A stretch of DNA of 64,000 nt from an uncultured Bifidobacteriaceae bacterium (lineage in GTDB: Bacteria > Acidobacteriota > Vicinamibacteria > Vicinamibacterales > UBA2999), in the NCBI GenBank assembly GCA_964619705.1, contig CAZUGF010000004.1:25481-89480 (forward strand), read 5' to 3'. The position numbers were made by a program, and so were the translations under genes. The notes under the pieces were generated by a model. It did no database searches. It was not told where the DNA came from and saw nothing but the letters and a program-made list of their open reading frames with translations. This document shows, one piece after another, positions 6,660-14,304 of the stretch; position 1 is the stretch's first letter, and each line of letters starts with the position of its first letter.

Positions 6660-7307
6660 CTACTGGAGGCGTGCGTGCGGACGCAGGGCGGCGCGCGTGC
6701 GTGTCGCGGCGGGACGTGGCGCGCGGTAGGGCAGGATGAGCGTTTCGAGGTCCTCGCGGACCCAGGTGTGCGCCGGGGCCTTCGATCCCGCCGTGCTCCA
6801 GGTGAGGAGCGAGCCCCGTGTGACGGCGATGACGGCGCGGGCCAGCGCGGGGATCGGACAGTCGATGATCTCCCGGGCCTTGCGGGCCTCCCGGAGCAAT
6901 CCCTCGACTTCGCGTGCGAGGGACTCGGTGTGCCGGTGGGCCAGGCGCTGGAACTCCGGGTCCTCGAGGCTCAACTGCAGGAAGGCCAGGGCGTGAGACA
7001 GGGCCTGCGGCCCATCGACGAGCTGGCGCGTCAGGCAGTCCCCCAGGCTGGCGATGGTCTCCAGGGGGGAGGTCTGCCGGGCGCGGCGCGAGGCGAACTG
7101 GGCGTTCATGCAGGTGACGCTGTGGGCGGCGACGGCAAGGAGCAGGTCCCGCTTGCTCTTGAACCGCAGGAGCAGGGTCGAGGGCGACAGGCCGACCTCG
7201 CGGGCGACATCCTCCAGCCTGAGGCGGGCGGGCCCGAGGCGGGCGAGGACACGGGCGGAGGCGTCGAGAATGGCCGCGTCGGATCGGCCTTTGGGTCGCG
7301 GGGACAT
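6660..7307 (-). CDS. TetR/AcrR family transcriptional regulator
   Basis: N-terminal HTH (LRLEDVAREVGLSPSTLLLRFKSKRDLL). It is divergent from the efflux operon. Confidence 0.9.
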   Translation of the reverse strand: MSPRPKGRSDAAILDASARVLARLGPARLRLEDVAREVGLSPSTLLLRFKSKRDLLLAVAAHSVTCMNAQFASRRARQTSPLETIASLGDCLTRQLVDGPQALSHALAFLQLSLEDPEFQRLAHRHTESLAREVEGLLREARKAREIIDCPIPALARAVIAVTRGSLLTWSTAGSKAPAHTWVREDLETLILPYRAPRPAATRTRAALRPHARLQ

Positions 7308-7324
7308 CGTGCGGCTACTTTACA

Positions 7325-7344
7325 ATAAATGAACCTTCATTTAT
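7325..7344. promoter_or_regulatory. Perfect 20-bp palindrome, candidate TetR operator in divergent promoter region
   Basis: ATAAATGAA-CC-TTCATTTAT lies in a striking AT-rich island (7316-7350) between the TetR gene and the MFP gene. It is flanked by -10-like hexamers (TACAAT, TATCAT). Confidence 0.65.
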
Positions 7345-7417
7345 CATCCAGTGTTCCCGAGACTGCGCCGGACCACACCCGTGGCGCCCGGACGAGCCAG
7401 TTCGCCAGCGAGCTTCC

Positions 7418-8578
7418 ATGTCCCAACTGTCCAATCGTGCCTTCGCTCCAGCCCTGATCCTGATCCCCGTCCTTGCCCTCGCGGCCCTGTCGGCGGCGTG
7501 CGGCGGCGGCAATGCCCCGGCCGATGCCGGCGGGACGGGCGGCCCCCCGCCGATGCCCGTCCAGGTGGTGACGCTCGAACCGCGGGATCTGGAGCGGACG
7601 AGCGAGTACGTCGCCAACCTGCGCTCGCGCAGTTCCACGACCATCCAGCCGCAGGTCGAGGGGTTCGTGACCCGGATCGCGGTCCGCTCGGGCGATCGCG
7701 TCCAGCGCGGCGCGGTCCTGTTCGAGATCGACGCGGCCCCGCAGCAGGCGGCGCTGGCCTCGACCGAGTCCCTGCGCGCCGTGCGCACGGCGGAAGTGGA
7801 GTACGCGCGCCAGCAGGCGGACCGCATGCAGGCGCTCTTCACGGCCGGCGCCGTCAGCCAGCAGGAACTCGAGCAGGCGCAGACGGCGCTCCGCACCACG
7901 GAGGCGCAGACGCAGGCGCTCGACGAGCAGCTTCGCGAGCAGCGGGCCCAGCTGGGCTACTTCCGCGTCACGGCGCCGACCGCCGGCATGGTCGGCGACG
8001 TCCCCGTGCGCGTGGGGGATCGCGTGACGGCCTCCACGGTCCTGACGACCGTGTCGGACAACGACCGCCTGGAGGTCTACGTCAGCGTGCCGATTCAGCA
8101 GGCGGCGGATCTCCGCACGGGCCTGCCCGTGCGCATCGTCGACGACCGCAACGAGGTGGTGGCGACCAACCCGGTGACGTTCGTGTCGCCGACGGTGGAG
8201 CCCACGCAGACGGTGCTGGCCAAGGCCCTCCTGGTTGACGGCGAGGGCCGGTTCCGGGCCGAGCAACTGGTGCGCGCGCGCATCGTCTGGCGGTCGGAGC
8301 CCGGCCTGACCATTCCGCTGACGTCGGTGACCCGCATCAACGGGCAGTACTTCGTGTTCGTCGCGGAGGCGCAGGGGGAGGGGACCGTCGCGCGGCAGAA
8401 GCCCGTGGCCCTCGGCGATCTCGTCGGTAACGACTACGTGGTGGAGTCCGGCCTGGAGGCCGGCGAGCGACTCATCGTCGGCGGCGTGCAGAAGATCGGG
8501 GACGGCGCGCCGGTGATGATCGCGCCGCCGGCCGGCGCGGGCCCGGCGGACGCCGCGGCAGAAACGAAGGCGTCCTAG
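7418..8578 (+). CDS. Efflux RND transporter periplasmic adaptor (membrane fusion protein)
   Basis: Lipoprotein-type signal (LAALSAAC). HlyD/AcrA-like lipoyl and coiled-coil regions (IQPQVEGFVTRIAVRSGDRVQRGAVLFEID, and QQELEQAQTAL...). Confidence 0.92.
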   Translation: MSQLSNRAFAPALILIPVLALAALSAACGGGNAPADAGGTGGPPPMPVQVVTLEPRDLERTSEYVANLRSRSSTTIQPQVEGFVTRIAVRSGDRVQRGAVLFEIDAAPQQAALASTESLRAVRTAEVEYARQQADRMQALFTAGAVSQQELEQAQTALRTTEAQTQALDEQLREQRAQLGYFRVTAPTAGMVGDVPVRVGDRVTASTVLTTVSDNDRLEVYVSVPIQQAADLRTGLPVRIVDDRNEVVATNPVTFVSPTVEPTQTVLAKALLVDGEGRFRAEQLVRARIVWRSEPGLTIPLTSVTRINGQYFVFVAEAQGEGTVARQKPVALGDLVGNDYVVESGLEAGERLIVGGVQKIGDGAPVMIAPPAGAGPADAAAETKAS

Positions 8579-8580
8579 CC

Positions 8581-11500
8581 ATGCTCGCGGACGTCTTCAT
8601 CAAGCGGCCGGTCCTCTCGACCGTCTGCTCGCTCATCATCATCCTCGCGGGCGCCATCTCGATCCCGACGCTGCCGATTGCCCGCTATCCGGAGCTGGCG
8701 CCGCCGGCGGTGTCGGTCACGGCGTTCTACACCGGCGCCAACGCCCAGACGGTGGAGAGTGCCGTCACCACGCCGCTCGAGCAGGCCATCAACGGCGTCG
8801 AGGGCATGCTCTACATGCAGTCGTCGAGCACGAACTCCGGCATGTCGACGATCACGGTGACGTTCGACATCTCGCGGGATCAGGACCTGGCGGCGGTGGA
8901 CGTGCAGAACCGCGTCAACTCGGCGCTCGGACGCATGCCCGCCGACGTGCGCACCAACGGCATCATCGTCACGAAGGTGACGGCCGGGTTCATGGGCGGC
9001 CTCGGCTTCTTCAGCCAGGACAACCGCTACTCGAACCAGTTCATCAGCAACTACCTGGACCTGTACGTCCGCGACGCCATCAAGCGTGTGCCGGGCGTGG
9101 GCGACGTCATCATCTTCGGCGAGCGGCGGTTTGCCATGCGGTTGTGGCTGGATCCGACGAAGCTCGCGTCGCGCCGGCTGACGGCGGGCGACGTGCTGAA
9201 CGCGCTCCGGGAGCAGAACGTCCAGGTGGCCGCGGGCGCGCTGGGCGACCAGCCCGCCGAGCCCGGGCAGATGTTCACGATCAGCGTCCGGGCCATGGGC
9301 CGGCTGACGGAGGTGTCGGAGTTCGAGAACGTCGTGGTCCAGGCCGGGCCGGACGGTGCGCTCGTGCGGGTCAGCGACATCGGGCGCGTGGAGCTCGGCG
9401 CCGAGCAGTACGCGGCCAACCTCCGCTTCCTCGGGCTCGAGGCCTCGGGTATCGGCATCACGCTGCTGCCGTCCGCCAACGCGCTGGACGTGTACGACGG
9501 CGTGATGGAGGTCATGGCGCGGCTCGAGCCGAGCTTCCCGCCCGCGCTCGAGTGGCGCATGGCGTTCGACAACGTGAGCGTGGTCCGGGAGTCCATCAGC
9601 GAGGTGGTGTGGACGCTCGGCGAGGCCATCGTGCTGGTGATCATCGTGATGTTCCTCTTCCTCCAGAACTGGCGGAGCACGATCATCCCGGCGGTGACGA
9701 TCCCGGTCTCGCTGATCGGCACCTTCGCGTTCATCCGGCTCTTCGACTTCTCGATCAACACGCTGACGCTCTTCGGCATCGTGCTCGCCACCGGCATCGT
9801 CGTGGACGATGCGATCGTGGTCATCGAGAACATCGAGCGCCACATGCACGACTACAAGAAATCCGCGCGGCGCGCGGCGCTCGACGCGATGCGCGAGGTG
9901 TTCGGGGCGGTCATCGTCATCGGCATCGTGCTGGTGTCGGTGTTCGTGCCTGTCGCGTTCTTCCCCGGGGTGACCGGGCGGCTCTACCAGCAGTTCTCGC
10001 TGACCATCGCGTTTGCCGTGCTGCTCTCCGTGTTCAACGCGGTGACGCTGACGCCCGCGCTGGCGGCGCTGCTGCTGGATCGGGAGAGCCACACGCACGG
10101 GCGGTTCTTCACGCTCGTCAACCGGGTCATCGACGGCGGGACCCACCTCTACGTGCGCCTCCTGCGCGGCGCGCTCCGCTTGCGCTATGCGATGGTGATC
10201 CTCTTCGTCGGCCTCCTGTGGGTCACGTGGACGCTCTTCCAGGTCCTGCCCGCGGCGTTCGTGCCGGAGGAGGACGAGGGCTACTTCATCACGGTCGTGC
10301 AGGCGCCGGCCGGTGCCTCGCTCGAGTACTCGACCGAGATTGCCAAGCAGGCGGAGGCGATTCTCTTCGCGGACCCGGATATCGCCGCCGCGTTTTCGGT
10401 GATGGGCTTCAGCTTCTCGGGCGCCGCGCCCAACAACGGGCTGATCTTCGTCCGGCTCAAGGACTACATCGAGCGCCCGGGCGCCGATCACTCCCTCCGC
10501 GCGGTACTCAACCGGGTCAGCGGTCCGCTGTTCATGATCCCGGGCGCCATCGTCGTGGCGTTCCCGCCGCCGCCCATCCAGGGGCTGTCCACGTTCGGCG
10601 GCTTCCAGTTCGAGGTGCTCGACCAGACCAACAGCACGGACATCAACCAGCTGGCCGGCGCGACCTTCGGGCTGATTGGCGCCGGCAACCAGAGCGGGCG
10701 CGTGCAGGGGCTCTTCAGCTCGTTCCGCGCCGACGATCCGCAGCTCATCGTCGACATCGATCGGGACCGGGCGCAGAGCCTCGGCCTGCCGATCCGCGAG
10801 GTGACCGATGCGCTCCAGGTGTTCCTGGGCTCGTCCTACGTCAACGACTTCGACTTCAACAACCGCGCCTACCGCGTGTACGCGCAGGCCGACCAGCAGT
10901 TCCGCGAGACGCCGACGGACCTGAAGCAGCTCTACGCGCGGGCGATGGACGGCACGATGGTGCCGCTCGACACGGTGGTGCGCCTCCACGAGGTGACGTC
11001 GCCGCAGGTCATCAGCCACTTCAACCTGTTCCGCTCCGCGCAGATCACGGGGAACGCCGCGCCGGGGCAGAGCTCCGGCCAGGCGCTCCAGGCGATGGAG
11101 GAACTGGCGCGCGAGACGCTGCCCGCGGGCTTCGACTTCGCCTGGTCCGGCCAGTCGTTCGAGGAGATCAAGTCCGGCGCGCAGGCCGGCCTGATCTTCG
11201 CGCTCAGCGTCATGCTGGTTTACCTGGTGCTGGCGGCGCAGTACGAGAGCTGGGTGCTGCCGTTCATCATTCTCCTGGGCGTGCCGCTGGCGGTACTTGG
11301 TGCGCTCAGCGCCCAGCTCGTCCGCGGGCTGGCCAACGACGTCTTCTGTCAGGTGGGCCTCGTCCTGCTCGTGGGCCTGGCGGCGAAGAACTCCATCCTG
11401 ATCGTCGAGTTCGCCGAGCAGATGCGGGAGCGCGGGATGTCGATCTTCGATGCGGCGGTCGAGGCCGCCCGCATCCGGCTGCGGCCCATCCTGATGACCT

Positions 11501-13068
11501 CCTTCGCGTTCATCCTGGGCGTGATGCCGCTGGCGCTCGCGACGGGGGCCGGCGCGGCGGCGCGCAACTCCGTCGGCACGGCGGTGGCCGGCGGCATGCT
11601 GGCCTCGACGTTCCTGGCCATCATCTTCATCCCGGTGCTCTACGTGATCCTGCGCACGCTGGTGCCGGGCCGCGCGCACCGCGGCCATGACGAGGACGAG
11701 GACGAGGGACCGGAGACCGGCGGCCACGGGCCCGCGCTCGGGGCGGCCGGCGCCGCCCTCCTGCTGGCCCTCGCCGCCGGCACGCCGGCGATGGCGCAGC
11801 CCCTGACGCAGGCCGCGTTCCAGGCGGGGATGCAGCCGGCGCCAGCCGCGGCGCAGGCGTCACCCGATCCGGCGCCGGAGGCGCTCTCGTTCGACGAGGC
11901 GGTGGCGCGTGCGGTGGCCAACAACCCGACCGTGCAGATTGCCGCGACGAGCGTGCTCCGGGCGGAGGCGATCCTGCAGCAGGTGCGGGCCGGCACGCTC
12001 CCCGCCGTCACGGCGTCCTTCAGCAACACCACGATCGACGGCGCCCGCGGCTTCGACGACCTGGTGACGCAGCCGCAGAACCAGTCACTCATCGCGGGCA
12101 CGGTGTCCATGCCGGTGCTCGCGGCGTCGCGGTGGGCCGCGCGGGCGCAGCAGGGCGATCGCATCGCGCTGGCGCAGCTCAACACGGCCGACGTGCGGCG
12201 GCAGATTGCCGTCTCCGCCGCCACGGCGTATCTGGCCATCATCACGCAGAAGCGGCAGGTCGAGGTGCAGGAGCGTGCCCTCGAGACCTCGCGCGCGCAG
12301 CTCGATTACAACCAGAAGCGGCTCGAGGGCGGCATCGGCAGCCGGCTGAACGCACTCCGGGCCGGGCAGGTGGCGGCCACCGACGAGAGCCTGCTGGAAC
12401 TGGCGCGCCTCAACGTGCGCCGCTCGCAGGAGGCGCTCGGCGTCCTCCTCGGCGAGGACCGGCCCATCGACGCGACGAGCGAGCCGGCCTTCGAGATTCC
12501 CGTCATCGGCGAGGAGTCGGAGTGGATGCCCACGCGTCCGGACATCCAGTTCTTCACCGCCGACCAGCGCCTCAACGAGCGCATCGTGCGCGACAGCTCG
12601 AAGGACTGGTGGCCGACGGCCAGCGTCTCCTTCGACCCGCAGTACGTGACGCCGGCCGGCCTCTTCCAACCCTCGCGGACCTGGCGGCTGACGCTCAGCG
12701 CCGTGCAGCCCATCTTCGACGGCGGCGAGCGCCGGGGCCTGCGGCGGCAGCGCGAGGCCGACCTGCGGGCGAGCGCGCTCACGCTGCAGCAGCGGGAGAT
12801 CCAGGCGCGCGCCGAGGTGCGCAACGCGCGGGCGGCGGTGGAGTTCAACGAGCGGGCCCTGGCAAGCGCGCGGCTGGCCGCGCAGAACGCCAACGAAGTG
12901 CTCCAGATCACCATCCTCGCCTTCGACGCCGGCGCGTCCACGAACATCGAGGTGATCGATGCGCAGCGATCCGCCCGGGACCTGGAGACCGTGGTGACGC
13001 AGACGGAGGATCGCGTCCGCCAGGCGCGGCTGGACCTGCTGGTCGCGCTCGGGCGGTTCCCGCAGTAG
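8581..13068 (+). CDS. RND (HAE1/AcrB-like) inner-membrane permease fused in frame to a TolC-like outer-membrane factor
   Basis: One uninterrupted 1495-codon ORF. Residues 1 to about 1030 are AcrB-like (MLADVFIKRPVLSTV..., 12 TM, two large periplasmic loops). Residues about 1075-1495 are OMF-like (SFDEAVARAVANNPTVQIA..., duplicated coiled halves). The junction has an acidic linker HRGHDEDEDEGPETGG followed by the signal-peptide-like ALGAAGAALLLALAAGTPAMA-QP (nt 11734-11796). Confidence 0.85.
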   Translation: MLADVFIKRPVLSTVCSLIIILAGAISIPTLPIARYPELAPPAVSVTAFYTGANAQTVESAVTTPLEQAINGVEGMLYMQSSSTNSGMSTITVTFDISRDQDLAAVDVQNRVNSALGRMPADVRTNGIIVTKVTAGFMGGLGFFSQDNRYSNQFISNYLDLYVRDAIKRVPGVGDVIIFGERRFAMRLWLDPTKLASRRLTAGDVLNALREQNVQVAAGALGDQPAEPGQMFTISVRAMGRLTEVSEFENVVVQAGPDGALVRVSDIGRVELGAEQYAANLRFLGLEASGIGITLLPSANALDVYDGVMEVMARLEPSFPPALEWRMAFDNVSVVRESISEVVWTLGEAIVLVIIVMFLFLQNWRSTIIPAVTIPVSLIGTFAFIRLFDFSINTLTLFGIVLATGIVVDDAIVVIENIERHMHDYKKSARRAALDAMREVFGAVIVIGIVLVSVFVPVAFFPGVTGRLYQQFSLTIAFAVLLSVFNAVTLTPALAALLLDRESHTHGRFFTLVNRVIDGGTHLYVRLLRGALRLRYAMVILFVGLLWVTWTLFQVLPAAFVPEEDEGYFITVVQAPAGASLEYSTEIAKQAEAILFADPDIAAAFSVMGFSFSGAAPNNGLIFVRLKDYIERPGADHSLRAVLNRVSGPLFMIPGAIVVAFPPPPIQGLSTFGGFQFEVLDQTNSTDINQLAGATFGLIGAGNQSGRVQGLFSSFRADDPQLIVDIDRDRAQSLGLPIREVTDALQVFLGSSYVNDFDFNNRAYRVYAQADQQFRETPTDLKQLYARAMDGTMVPLDTVVRLHEVTSPQVISHFNLFRSAQITGNAAPGQSSGQALQAMEELARETLPAGFDFAWSGQSFEEIKSGAQAGLIFALSVMLVYLVLAAQYESWVLPFIILLGVPLAVLGALSAQLVRGLANDVFCQVGLVLLVGLAAKNSILIVEFAEQMRERGMSIFDAAVEAARIRLRPILMTSFAFILGVMPLALATGAGAAARNSVGTAVAGGMLASTFLAIIFIPVLYVILRTLVPGRAHRGHDEDEDEGPETGGHGPALGAAGAALLLALAAGTPAMAQPLTQAAFQAGMQPAPAAAQASPDPAPEALSFDEAVARAVANNPTVQIAATSVLRAEAILQQVRAGTLPAVTASFSNTTIDGARGFDDLVTQPQNQSLIAGTVSMPVLAASRWAARAQQGDRIALAQLNTADVRRQIAVSAATAYLAIITQKRQVEVQERALETSRAQLDYNQKRLEGGIGSRLNALRAGQVAATDESLLELARLNVRRSQEALGVLLGEDRPIDATSEPAFEIPVIGEESEWMPTRPDIQFFTADQRLNERIVRDSSKDWWPTASVSFDPQYVTPAGLFQPSRTWRLTLSAVQPIFDGGERRGLRRQREADLRASALTLQQREIQARAEVRNARAAVEFNERALASARLAAQNANEVLQITILAFDAGASTNIEVIDAQRSARDLETVVTQTEDRVRQARLDLLVALGRFPQ

Positions 13069-13248
13069 GGACCGCGCCGATCAGGGCGCGATGAAGGGAA
13101 GGCCGCAGCGCTCGAGGATGCCGGAGTCGATCTGGAGGAGCCGCTCGCCCCAGATCAGCGCGCGGTCGTGGTCCCCGAGCTTCGCGTAGCGAGATACGCA
13201 GGTGCGTTTCGCCCGATGGGCCAGCCGGAGCGCGGGTAGTATGGACCG

Positions 13249-14304
13249 ATGACACGACCGGGCCACGACCGCTTCGGCCAGTTGCTCTTCTACGGGATCG
13301 TGCTCCTGGTGGCCTACCTGGCCTACATCGTCATTCAGCCCTTCCTGGCGTCGCTGGCCTGGGCCGCGATCTTTGCCACGAGCCTGAACTCGGTGCAGCA
13401 GCGGTTTGCGGCCCGGATCGGTGCCGGGCGAGCGGCACTCGCGACGACGGCCCTGGCGGCCGCGCTCATCGTCGGACCGGTCGCGACGCTTGTGTCCATG
13501 CTGGCTGCCGACGTGCCCAAGGTCATCGACTTCGTCCAGGGCCTGCCCCAGCATGCGACGCCCGAGCGGATCCAGGAGGTCTGGGACATCATCCGGGATC
13601 GCAGCGCCATCGAACTCCCCGCGGATCCGACAGCGCTGCTGCAACAGGCGGCCCAGGCCGTGCTGACCTACATCGCGCCGCGGCTGGGCGGTCTGGCGGC
13701 CAACCTCGCCTCGATCGTCGGGAGCCTCTTCGTCATGCTCTTCGCGCTCTTCTTCCTCCTGCGCGATGCCGACGGTGTCGCCCGCATGGTGCGGCGCCTG
13801 CTGCCGTTCCCGATGGACGAGCGGGAGCGGCTGATCACGGAGACGCGCGACCTGGTCGTGGCCGGCGTCGGCGCGGCGCTCACGGTGGCCGTGGTCCAGG
13901 GCATTGTCGGGGCCATCTCGTTCTGGGCCCTTGGCGTGGCCGTACCCGCGGCCTGGGGCGCGGCGATTGCCGTGTGCTCGCTCATCCCCGTCGTGGGGAC
14001 GACGCTGGTCTGGCTGCCGGTCGCGGCGTGGTGGCTGCTGTCCGGCGAGATCGTGCGCGGCCTGATCCTCGTGGCGATCGGCGCCGGCGTGATCGGGCTC
14101 GTGGACAACGTGCTCCGGCCCGTCCTGCTGGCGGGACGGACGTCCGCGAACGGACTGGTCGTCTTCATCGGGCTGCTGGGCGGCGTGGCGGCGTTCGGGT
14201 TTGTCGGCCTGGTGCTCGGTCCCATCGTGCTCGTGATTGCCGGCAGCCTGGTCGACGCGCTGACGCGCGAGCGGCGGGCGCCGCAGAAGGCCGCGGTGGA
14301 GTAG
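13249..14304 (+). CDS. AI-2E family transporter (PerM/UPF0118)
   Basis: 351 aa with 7-8 TM. The characteristic C-terminal block is present (IPVVGTTLVWLPVAAWWLL..., GLVDNVLRPVLLAGR, VVFIGLLGGVAAFGFVGLVLGP). Confidence 0.85.
   Translation: MTRPGHDRFGQLLFYGIVLLVAYLAYIVIQPFLASLAWAAIFATSLNSVQQRFAARIGAGRAALATTALAAALIVGPVATLVSMLAADVPKVIDFVQGLPQHATPERIQEVWDIIRDRSAIELPADPTALLQQAAQAVLTYIAPRLGGLAANLASIVGSLFVMLFALFFLLRDADGVARMVRRLLPFPMDERERLITETRDLVVAGVGAALTVAVVQGIVGAISFWALGVAVPAAWGAAIAVCSLIPVVGTTLVWLPVAAWWLLSGEIVRGLILVAIGAGVIGLVDNVLRPVLLAGRTSANGLVVFIGLLGGVAAFGFVGLVLGPIVLVIAGSLVDALTRERRAPQKAAVE

Follow-up and report, generated by a model that had tools for sequence, protein, structure and literature searches.

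Tripartite efflux pumps and single-chain precedents

Tripartite efflux pumps are textbook machines of three separately made proteins: an adaptor or membrane fusion protein (MFP), an inner-membrane permease of the resistance-nodulation-division (RND) superfamily, and a channel or outer membrane factor (OMF). Debate continues over how the channel is matched to its cognate inner-membrane partner, and over the ratio of the two. The gene considered here encodes permease and channel as one open reading frame (ORF). It occupies positions 8581..13068 on the forward strand of a 64,000-nucleotide stretch of DNA (contig CAZUGF010000004.1, positions 25,481 to 89,480; the window) from an uncultured soil acidobacterium of the Vicinamibacterales, and its product is probably a polyprotein precursor of a tripartite RND pump that is cut by signal peptidase I after residue A1072.

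The familiar points of reference are MexAB-OprM of Pseudomonas aeruginosa and AcrAB of Escherichia coli, the latter with its unlinked TolC. The present locus resembles both in having a TetR-type regulator, a lipoprotein adaptor, a permease of 12 transmembrane (TM) helices with an intact proton relay, and a channel of the TolC/OprM fold. Its gene order is that of mexA-mexB-oprM, and the mature pump would be expected to be conventional. Unlike either system, the permease and channel share one ORF, the signal peptide of the OMF is internal, the permease would keep a 13th helix, and the OMF is apparently no lipoprotein. Unfused gene pairs of the Vicinamibacterales (L013-L021, L055, L058) have OMFs of 43-61% identity, the same A-x-A↓Q motif (the arrow marking the predicted cleavage site) and the same His-ending RND tail. 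These pairs differ in being two genes, with an 8-nt overlap or, in a few cases, in-frame stops between them, and in having a signal peptide with a Met and a basic n-region.

The nearest known parallel in mechanism, the FbcH cytochrome b/c1 polyprotein of Bradyrhizobium japonicum, is reported to have a polytopic part ending in the cytoplasm and an internal signal sequence, with demonstrated processing into two subunits. The polytopic part, the internal signal and the exported downstream moiety would find their likeness in the present gene, although processing into two subunits is here a prediction. Neither FbcH product leaves the inner membrane, whereas the part freed here would go on to the outer membrane. 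Within the RND superfamily itself, SecDF (e.g. of Thermus thermophilus) is a natural single-chain fusion (PMC8277102). SecDF differs in being one uncleaved inner-membrane protein, without an internal signal peptide or an outer-membrane part. The accessible portion of that review (2021 Chem Rev) mentions gene fusions just for SecDF, MacB nucleotide-binding domains and C39 peptidase domains, and no natural RND-OMF fusion was found in the literature searched, which included this portion (PMC8277102). An RND-OMF fusion with an internal signal is apparently undescribed in the literature.

Two efflux proteins in one reading frame

The uninterrupted ORF reported in a preliminary description of this DNA is borne out. 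The frame encodes 1495 amino acids (aa) without an internal stop, is the sole long sense frame at these positions, and contains both expected Pfam domains, with a computed mass of 161.3 kDa for the precursor. The RND permease (HAE1, AcrB/MexB-like) comprises residues 1-1027 (8581..11661), as delimited by ACR_tran, alignment and hydropathy, with TM12 at approximately residues 1003-1027. ACR_tran (PF00873) spans residues 3-1024 with 1129 bits, and the NCBIfam model RND_permease_1 (NF000282) scores 1281.8 bits against a cut-off of 1250, as does TIGR00915 for the RND part with 1257 bits against 940. The RND part remains below the equivalog cut-offs for AcrB, AcrD, OqxB and MdtB/C (923-927 vs 1854-2150 bits), and by these scores it is a generic HAE1 member and no orthologue of a named pump. 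When aligned with solved AcrB-type and MexB-type pumps (E=1.6e-268), the VVDDAIVV motif of TM4 is matched, and the proton-relay residues D409 and D410 (TM4) and K936 (TM10) are invariant in 39 homologues. The hydropathy peaks of this half also fall at the positions expected for 12 TM helices.

The OMF domain extends from L1102 to Q1495 (11884..13065) and consists of two OEP repeats (PF02321; 9.7e-40) reaching residue 1491. TolC/NodT-type NCBIfam models align at residues 1101-1492 of the fused protein and stay under their curated cut-offs (TIGR01844, TolC type I, 78.7 vs 225 bits; TIGR01845, NodT, 79.7 vs 210 bits). No Cys of the lipobox kind follows the hydrophobic segment of the fused protein, for which reason a lipoprotein OMF was rejected; this half is thus best described as a divergent, non-lipoprotein OMF. 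The phmmer matches of the OMF part include OprJ, OprM, OprN and MtrE. An AlphaFold2 (AF2) model of residues 1001-1495, with a mean predicted local distance difference test score (pLDDT) of 80.4, gives in order the TM12 helix, an unstructured linker, a short hydrophobic helix, an unstructured stretch, and from about residue 1100 an OMF protomer of four beta-strands and two 69-residue helices at pLDDT >90. In a Foldseek search of the PDB with this model, the top 39 matches are all OMFs (OprJ, OprM, VceC, OprN, TolC, CmeC, CusC, MtrE, SilC) at probability 1.0, and the TM-scores, just 0.34-0.41, are in the range to be expected when an elongated trimer is modelled as a monomer. Both halves look functional.

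A 1050-codon open frame also runs antisense to the RND gene at 8575-11727 on the reverse strand. It is no gene and results from a G+C content of 96% at third codon positions (GC3). Likewise, in two related genomes (G028 and G112) frames of 781 and 1585 aa, respectively, surround a separately encoded OMF. Long open frames alone are unreliable as evidence of fusion in this high-GC clade.

The junction

The junction reads ...FIPVLYVILRTL-VPGRAHRGHDEDEDEGPETGGHGP-ALGAAGAALLLALAAGTPAMA↓QPLTQ.... After TM12 comes a cytoplasmic linker, V1028-P1051 (11662..11733; pLDDT <50), in which a basic patch, PGRAHRGH, precedes an acidic stretch rich in Gly and Pro; residues 1033-1048 are HRGHDEDEDEGPETGG. The segment A1052-A1072 (11734..11796), ALGAAGAALLLALAAGTPAMA, has the h- and c-regions of a signal peptide by hydropathy, structural models and homology. 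The acidic linker and the signal-peptide-like segment with its AxA motif were both part of the preliminary description, and their coordinates hold exactly. The hydrophobic core, AALLLALAA, is followed by a helix-breaking P1069, by A1070 and A1072 at positions -3 and -1, and by Q1073-P1074 from +1 onward. Conservation places the predicted signal peptidase I site at P1069-A1070-M1071-A1072, before Q1073 (11785..11799). With a KD19 hydropathy of 1.67, against 1.9-2.9 for the true TM helices of the RND half, and a helix of only 10-14 residues in the AF2 models, this weak and short core has the character usual in cleavable signal peptides, not in membrane anchors. The Pro/Ala/Gln-rich extension that follows, Q1073-A1101 (29 aa; 11797..11883), is probably disordered, as its low pLDDT suggests, and would form the N-terminus of the mature OMF.

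Possible start codons are scarce across this region. Between 11662 and 11790 there is no in-frame ATG, GTG, TTG, CTG or ATH except the GTG at 11662 (V1028) and two CTG codons within the hydrophobic core, and the ATG at 11791 encodes M1071, that is, position -2 of the cleavage motif. The earlier statement that GTG 11662 is the sole alternative start near the junction agrees with the sequence, as do the other items of that description. No Shine-Dalgarno-like sequence was found upstream of GTG 11662, V1028 is not conserved among homologues, and initiation there would yield a 45-residue leader with a net charge of about -5 (2 K/R, 7 D/E). The fused frame has a GC3 of 0.87-1.0 across the junction, compared with 0.95-0.96 in the two halves.

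Conservation of the fusion

Residues 1000-1495 were searched against a collection of 5.8 billion proteins, with subjects limited to those of at least 822 aa. This query of junction plus OMF matched 211 proteins, and the matches listed include more than 100 full-length fused clusters of 1466-1516 aa, with both Pfam domains and 54-73% identity, almost all of which derive from metagenome-assembled genomes (MAGs) of Vicinamibacterales or Acidobacteriota. A search of a representative protein set with residues 961-1495 provided no census of fusions, the best 150 entries being fragments and stand-alone OMFs of at most 690 aa. Among 80 species-representative genomes fetched by similarity, with junctions located by tblastn anchoring, an in-frame fusion was present in 20, which come from projects that used SPAdes, MEGAHIT or long-read assembly. 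Open frames that cover the junction, 1500-1900 aa long, are found in most genomes of the source organism's genus. The preliminary description had called for a comparison of orthologues at this position; those that are two intact genes lie outside the main fused clade of the OMF tree described below. No cultured carrier occurs among the related loci and cluster members, which are all MAGs, and the NCBI name of the fused proteins is merely "multidrug efflux RND transporter permease subunit".

Some fused copies are frameshifted (L022 of G013; L035/L061 of G225; G002:C4:837599-839165; L110; L112), the majority of them from long-read "MFD" bins, whose assemblies comprise few, long contigs, and the frameshifts are probably indel errors rather than marks of pseudogenes. 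Ten loci of species-representative MAGs (L044, L052, L053, L054, L058, L059, L061, L072, L088 and L101) have this Vicinamibacterales-type gene, 46-69% identical, in records labelled Cyanobacteriota, Bifidobacteriaceae or Acidimicrobiia; such labels likely reflect mislabelled or chimeric bins.

The history of the fusion was followed in a maximum-likelihood tree of the OMF domain (51 rows, LG+C20). Of the 32 fused rows, 29, the source gene included, group in a single clade (support 100/99), which lies within a set of unfused orthologues and itself includes no intact two-gene orthologue. It also contains the frameshifted G013 and G225, as well as G263, where a contig end truncates the locus upstream of the junction, all three lying outside the count of fused and separate rows. 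The remaining fused rows, G167, G116 and G153, are placed separately among unfused ones, and the supported branches cannot be explained by fewer than four state changes. There are at least three further fusions of independent origin, and their junctions are built differently: ...SRNH-MERTAVFFIGILLLGATTAFA↓QS in G167, where the OMF Met is retained in frame, ...QTLRGGSARAAAVVASVLVIGAGSLAPSVASA↓QD in G116, found in two species, and ...RSVGRGGRHVAAALVVVGLLGGLAAPVAA↓QD in G153.

A second RND-OMF fusion resides in the same genome (P0122; 1492 aa; L024, G000:C80, 3264-7742) and is 26% identical to the first. It has over 100 fused homologues among the matches listed, out of 409 matches, and in a 301-genome sample of the phylum all nine of its orthologues are fused and belong to the Vicinamibacterales. 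The hydrophobic segment of this family (IAGIVLVLALVGWFLS..AFA↓Q; junction residues ~1010-1075), including the motif LVGWFLS, is conserved far better than that of family 1, which suggests that the retained helix may have acquired a role of its own. The independent fusions and family 2 all retain a hydrophobic core and A-x-A↓Q/S. The fusion itself is real, conserved and of repeated origin. The source genome has eight RND loci, two of them fused; at two others (C3 and C60) a separately framed OMF match lies just downstream of the RND gene on the same strand.

Selection on the predicted cleavage motif

The internal segment and the N-terminal signal peptide of unfused orthologues are homologous, and the two could be compared column by column in a junction logo of 103 fused family-1 proteins and 42 unfused orthologues. 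Ala occupies position -1 in 102/103 fused and 37/42 unfused proteins and position -3 in 97/103 and 32/42, and Gln stands at +1 in 88/103 and 28/42. Position -4 is Pro in 78 of the 103 fused proteins, compared with no clear preference in the unfused ones (Pro 8, Ala 8, Gly 7 of 42), and position -2 varies in fused and unfused alike. Around the site, the fused family-1 proteins vary: linkers range from 18 to 51 aa, spacers downstream of the site from 3 to 48 aa, and the core differs in sequence. When 39 proteins were aligned with MAFFT, no junction column other than A1072 was invariant, and P1069 and Q1073 reached 90% or above; in family 2, Ala is present at -3 and at -1 in 63/63. By these counts conservation of the internal motif appears to equal or exceed that in the true N-terminal signal peptides of unfused orthologues, and the pattern argues that the motif is under selection. 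Two type I signal peptidases are encoded in the source genome (TIGR02227, 171 and 169 bits).

Exported proteins of Bacteroidota follow a "Q-rule", by which their N-termini carry pyroglutamate. The preference for Gln at +1 (Q1073, nt 11797) recalls this rule, and a similar one may operate in the Vicinamibacterales. A glutaminyl cyclase homologue (PF05096, 328 bits) is encoded in the same genome (G000:C23:47457-48191).

Origin from overlapping genes

Sister genera and families have RND and OMF orthologues as two genes. The unfused RND ends 10-25 residues past TM12, nearly always in x-His-(Ala/Glu/Gly)-stop, because the OMF start overlaps its end: in 32 of the 42 unfused pairs the OMF ATG lies 5 nt ahead of the first base of the RND stop, giving an 8-nt overlap of cATGnnTAG or cATGnnTGA, and a GAGG-rich stretch precedes it. 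This overlap is a translational-coupling design that is strikingly fixed across an order (L013-L021, L055-L107). In a few genomes RND and OMF are in the same frame and parted by a stop. The separate OMFs have a normal N-terminal signal peptide ending in A-x-A↓Q, which in the closest unfused relative reads MGSLRHTLGVAVAVVGLATATAVA↓QP.

The fusion would have arisen from two such translationally coupled genes. Gly-His-Gly or Gly-His-Ala directly precedes the hydrophobic core in many fused homologues and, on comparison with unfused orthologues, can be read as a relic of the cATGg overlap. In the source gene this putative relic is the His-Gly at 11725..11730; since it reads CAC GGG, the old OMF start codon is gone. 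From the His codon to the first conserved DNA of the core, CTCGGnGnGGCC, there are 12 nt here and 22 nt in the nearest unfused orthologue. An approximate reconstruction is that a net loss of 10 nt (3n+1) removed the stop and the n-region and so joined the frames.

Proposed biogenesis and competing explanations

The proposed course of events begins with the ribosome making a single 161-kDa chain, whose 12-helix RND part would insert co-translationally and leave its C-terminus in the cytoplasm. After a short cytoplasmic loop, A1052-A1072 would enter the Sec translocon as a thirteenth hydrophobic segment in N-in/C-out orientation and, as an internal signal peptide, carry the 423-residue OMF part across the membrane. 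Cutting after A1070-M-A1072 by signal peptidase I would then free into the periplasm a 46.1-kDa OMF (N-terminus QPLTQ...) that would trimerize in the outer membrane, and would leave a 115.3-kDa RND protein that keeps the loop and, as a further helix at its C-terminus, the signal peptide. Together with the upstream lipoprotein adaptor, and under the divergent TetR regulator, an ordinary MFP-RND-OMF pump would result. Such a fusion would guarantee a 1:1 (3:3) ratio of RND to OMF and would release each channel beside its own pump.

Several points weigh against this cleaved polyprotein. Topology, Sec export, cleavage and assembly are all inferred. A basic n-region is lacking, as the internal segment is preceded by 24 residues with 2 K/R and 7 D/E; its orientation would have to be set by TM12 instead. 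The cleavage sites were called by simple rules that favour small residues, a bias mitigated by the independent MAFFT alignment in which A1072 is likewise invariant. The AF2 model of the RND half plus the hydrophobic segment has a mean pLDDT of 53.7 and is uninformative on a 13th helix, likely because the 39-row alignment is shallow and its members too similar (~80% identity).

Of the three interpretations between which the preliminary description made no choice, an internal signal or 13th TM segment with release of the OMF by signal peptidase is the one favoured, given the homology to unfused signal peptides and a P-A-x-A↓Q motif conserved as well as in these or better. If the chain instead stayed uncleaved, the segment would be a permanent 13th TM helix and the OMF would be tethered to the RND part, as one chain in both membranes or as an OMF-like periplasmic extension. 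The continuous frame and the 1:1 RND:OMF stoichiometry of the pump make a tether conceivable, the unusual conservation of the family-2 segment (LVGWFLS) hints at a role for the helix, and cleavage is itself a prediction. A mere anchor, however, needs no A-x-A↓Q with Pro at -4, which is almost invariant amid drifting surroundings, and the hydrophobic core is short for an anchor; a conserved helix fits cleavage equally well, since the helix stays on the RND part. In assembled pumps (AcrAB-TolC geometry), well over 100 Å separates the inner membrane from the N-terminus of a TolC-type protomer. Many homologues have a spacer of just 3-10 aa between site and OMF, and that of the present protein, with 29 aa, extends to ~100 Å at the most; both would be too short to span from the inner membrane to the OMF N-terminus, and a permanent tether is accordingly quite improbable. 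Little more can be said for the idea that part of the molecules, or forms with long linkers, escape cleavage to give a covalently pre-assembled trans-envelope pump, joining an alpha-helical, proton-driven inner-membrane transporter and part of an outer-membrane beta-barrel channel in one polypeptide; its chances are slim. A milder variant assumes that cleavage occurs and that the retained signal peptide is a functional 13th RND helix, docked for example on the TM bundle; if true, this would explain the strong conservation of the segment in the second fusion family.

It is also very doubtful that the OMF comes mainly from an internal start, as in the ancestral coupled genes, with the read-through fusion as a by-product. 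The coupled ancestors had a Shine-Dalgarno-like, GAGG-rich RND tail, of which GAGGA/GAGGG strings remain at 11692-11708; G167 keeps its OMF Met in frame; and V-R-R precedes the hydrophobic core in some homologues. Against this, downstream of 11662 the frame offers no ATG, GTG, TTG or near-cognate codon before the core is reached, and GTG 11662 itself has no Shine-Dalgarno sequence, an unconserved residue and a strongly acidic leader in prospect. Among related loci, L004 has no in-frame start, and L005, L008 and L009 have just a GTG directly after PG(K/R), without a Shine-Dalgarno sequence. The linker contains neither Met nor Val in 58/103 fused proteins, the relic ATG is mutated here (CAC) and is out of frame with the OMF where it is retained, and no promoter-like site is found near the junction. 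With no usable start here and so many linkers without Met or Val, internal initiation was rejected as a general route. The last of the three interpretations, a lost stop codon, stands in the evolutionary sense of an old, fixed, frame-fusing deletion and fails as a sequencing error or recent mutation. That the assembly or the reads are wrong, or that this genome alone has lately suffered an inactivating mutation, might be suspected from its 170-contig, MAG-like assembly and from the frameshifts in this gene in a few relatives (G013, G225, G002, L110, L112), mostly in long-read assemblies. Yet unrelated projects, using various assemblers, have yielded the same in-frame junction in over 100 protein clusters and some 20 species representatives, and on the strength of this conservation error was rejected and recent mutation is excluded, their likelihood being negligible. 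The fused clade is moreover old (to ~55% identity) and monophyletic, GC3 stays at 0.87-1.0 across the junction, and both domains are under strong purifying selection.

Genetic context

The fused gene is preceded by the gene for the MFP adaptor (7418..8578, forward strand), a HlyD/AcrA-like protein of 386 aa with a lipoprotein-type N-terminus (LSAAC) and Pfam matches to HlyD_D23, HlyD_3 and Biotin_lipoyl_2, whose stop lies 2 nt ahead of the fused gene. A TetR-family regulator, likely the repressor of the operon, is encoded divergently at 6660..7307 on the reverse strand (Pfam TetR_N, 5.9e-11). A promoter-like site, TTTACA-17-TATCAT, is located at 7319..7347 on the forward strand by consensus match only, and the consensus scan of 7250-13400 on that strand gave no second such site beside it and none near the junction. 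With the adaptor 2 nt upstream, a divergent TetR gene and the promoter-like site before the adaptor, the locus is read as one operon of regulator, adaptor, RND and OMF, the last two genes being one. After a 180-nt gap follows a gene for an AI-2E family transporter (PF01594, 5.2e-43) at 13249-14304 on the forward strand; no terminator-like site was found between the efflux operon and this gene.

Implications

Because fusions of ~1500 residues are labelled simply as "RND permease subunit", OMF counts and pump inventories of Acidobacteriota are underestimated. The fused gene offers a genetic handle on the processing of an internal signal peptide after a 12-TM protein, on what becomes of a signal peptide that has to be kept, and on the step from coupled overlapping genes to a fusion. 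If the cleaved polyprotein is the true form, it would be a rare bacterial case in which one translation product supplies two membranes, with 1:1 stoichiometry and with the channel delivered beside its own pump.

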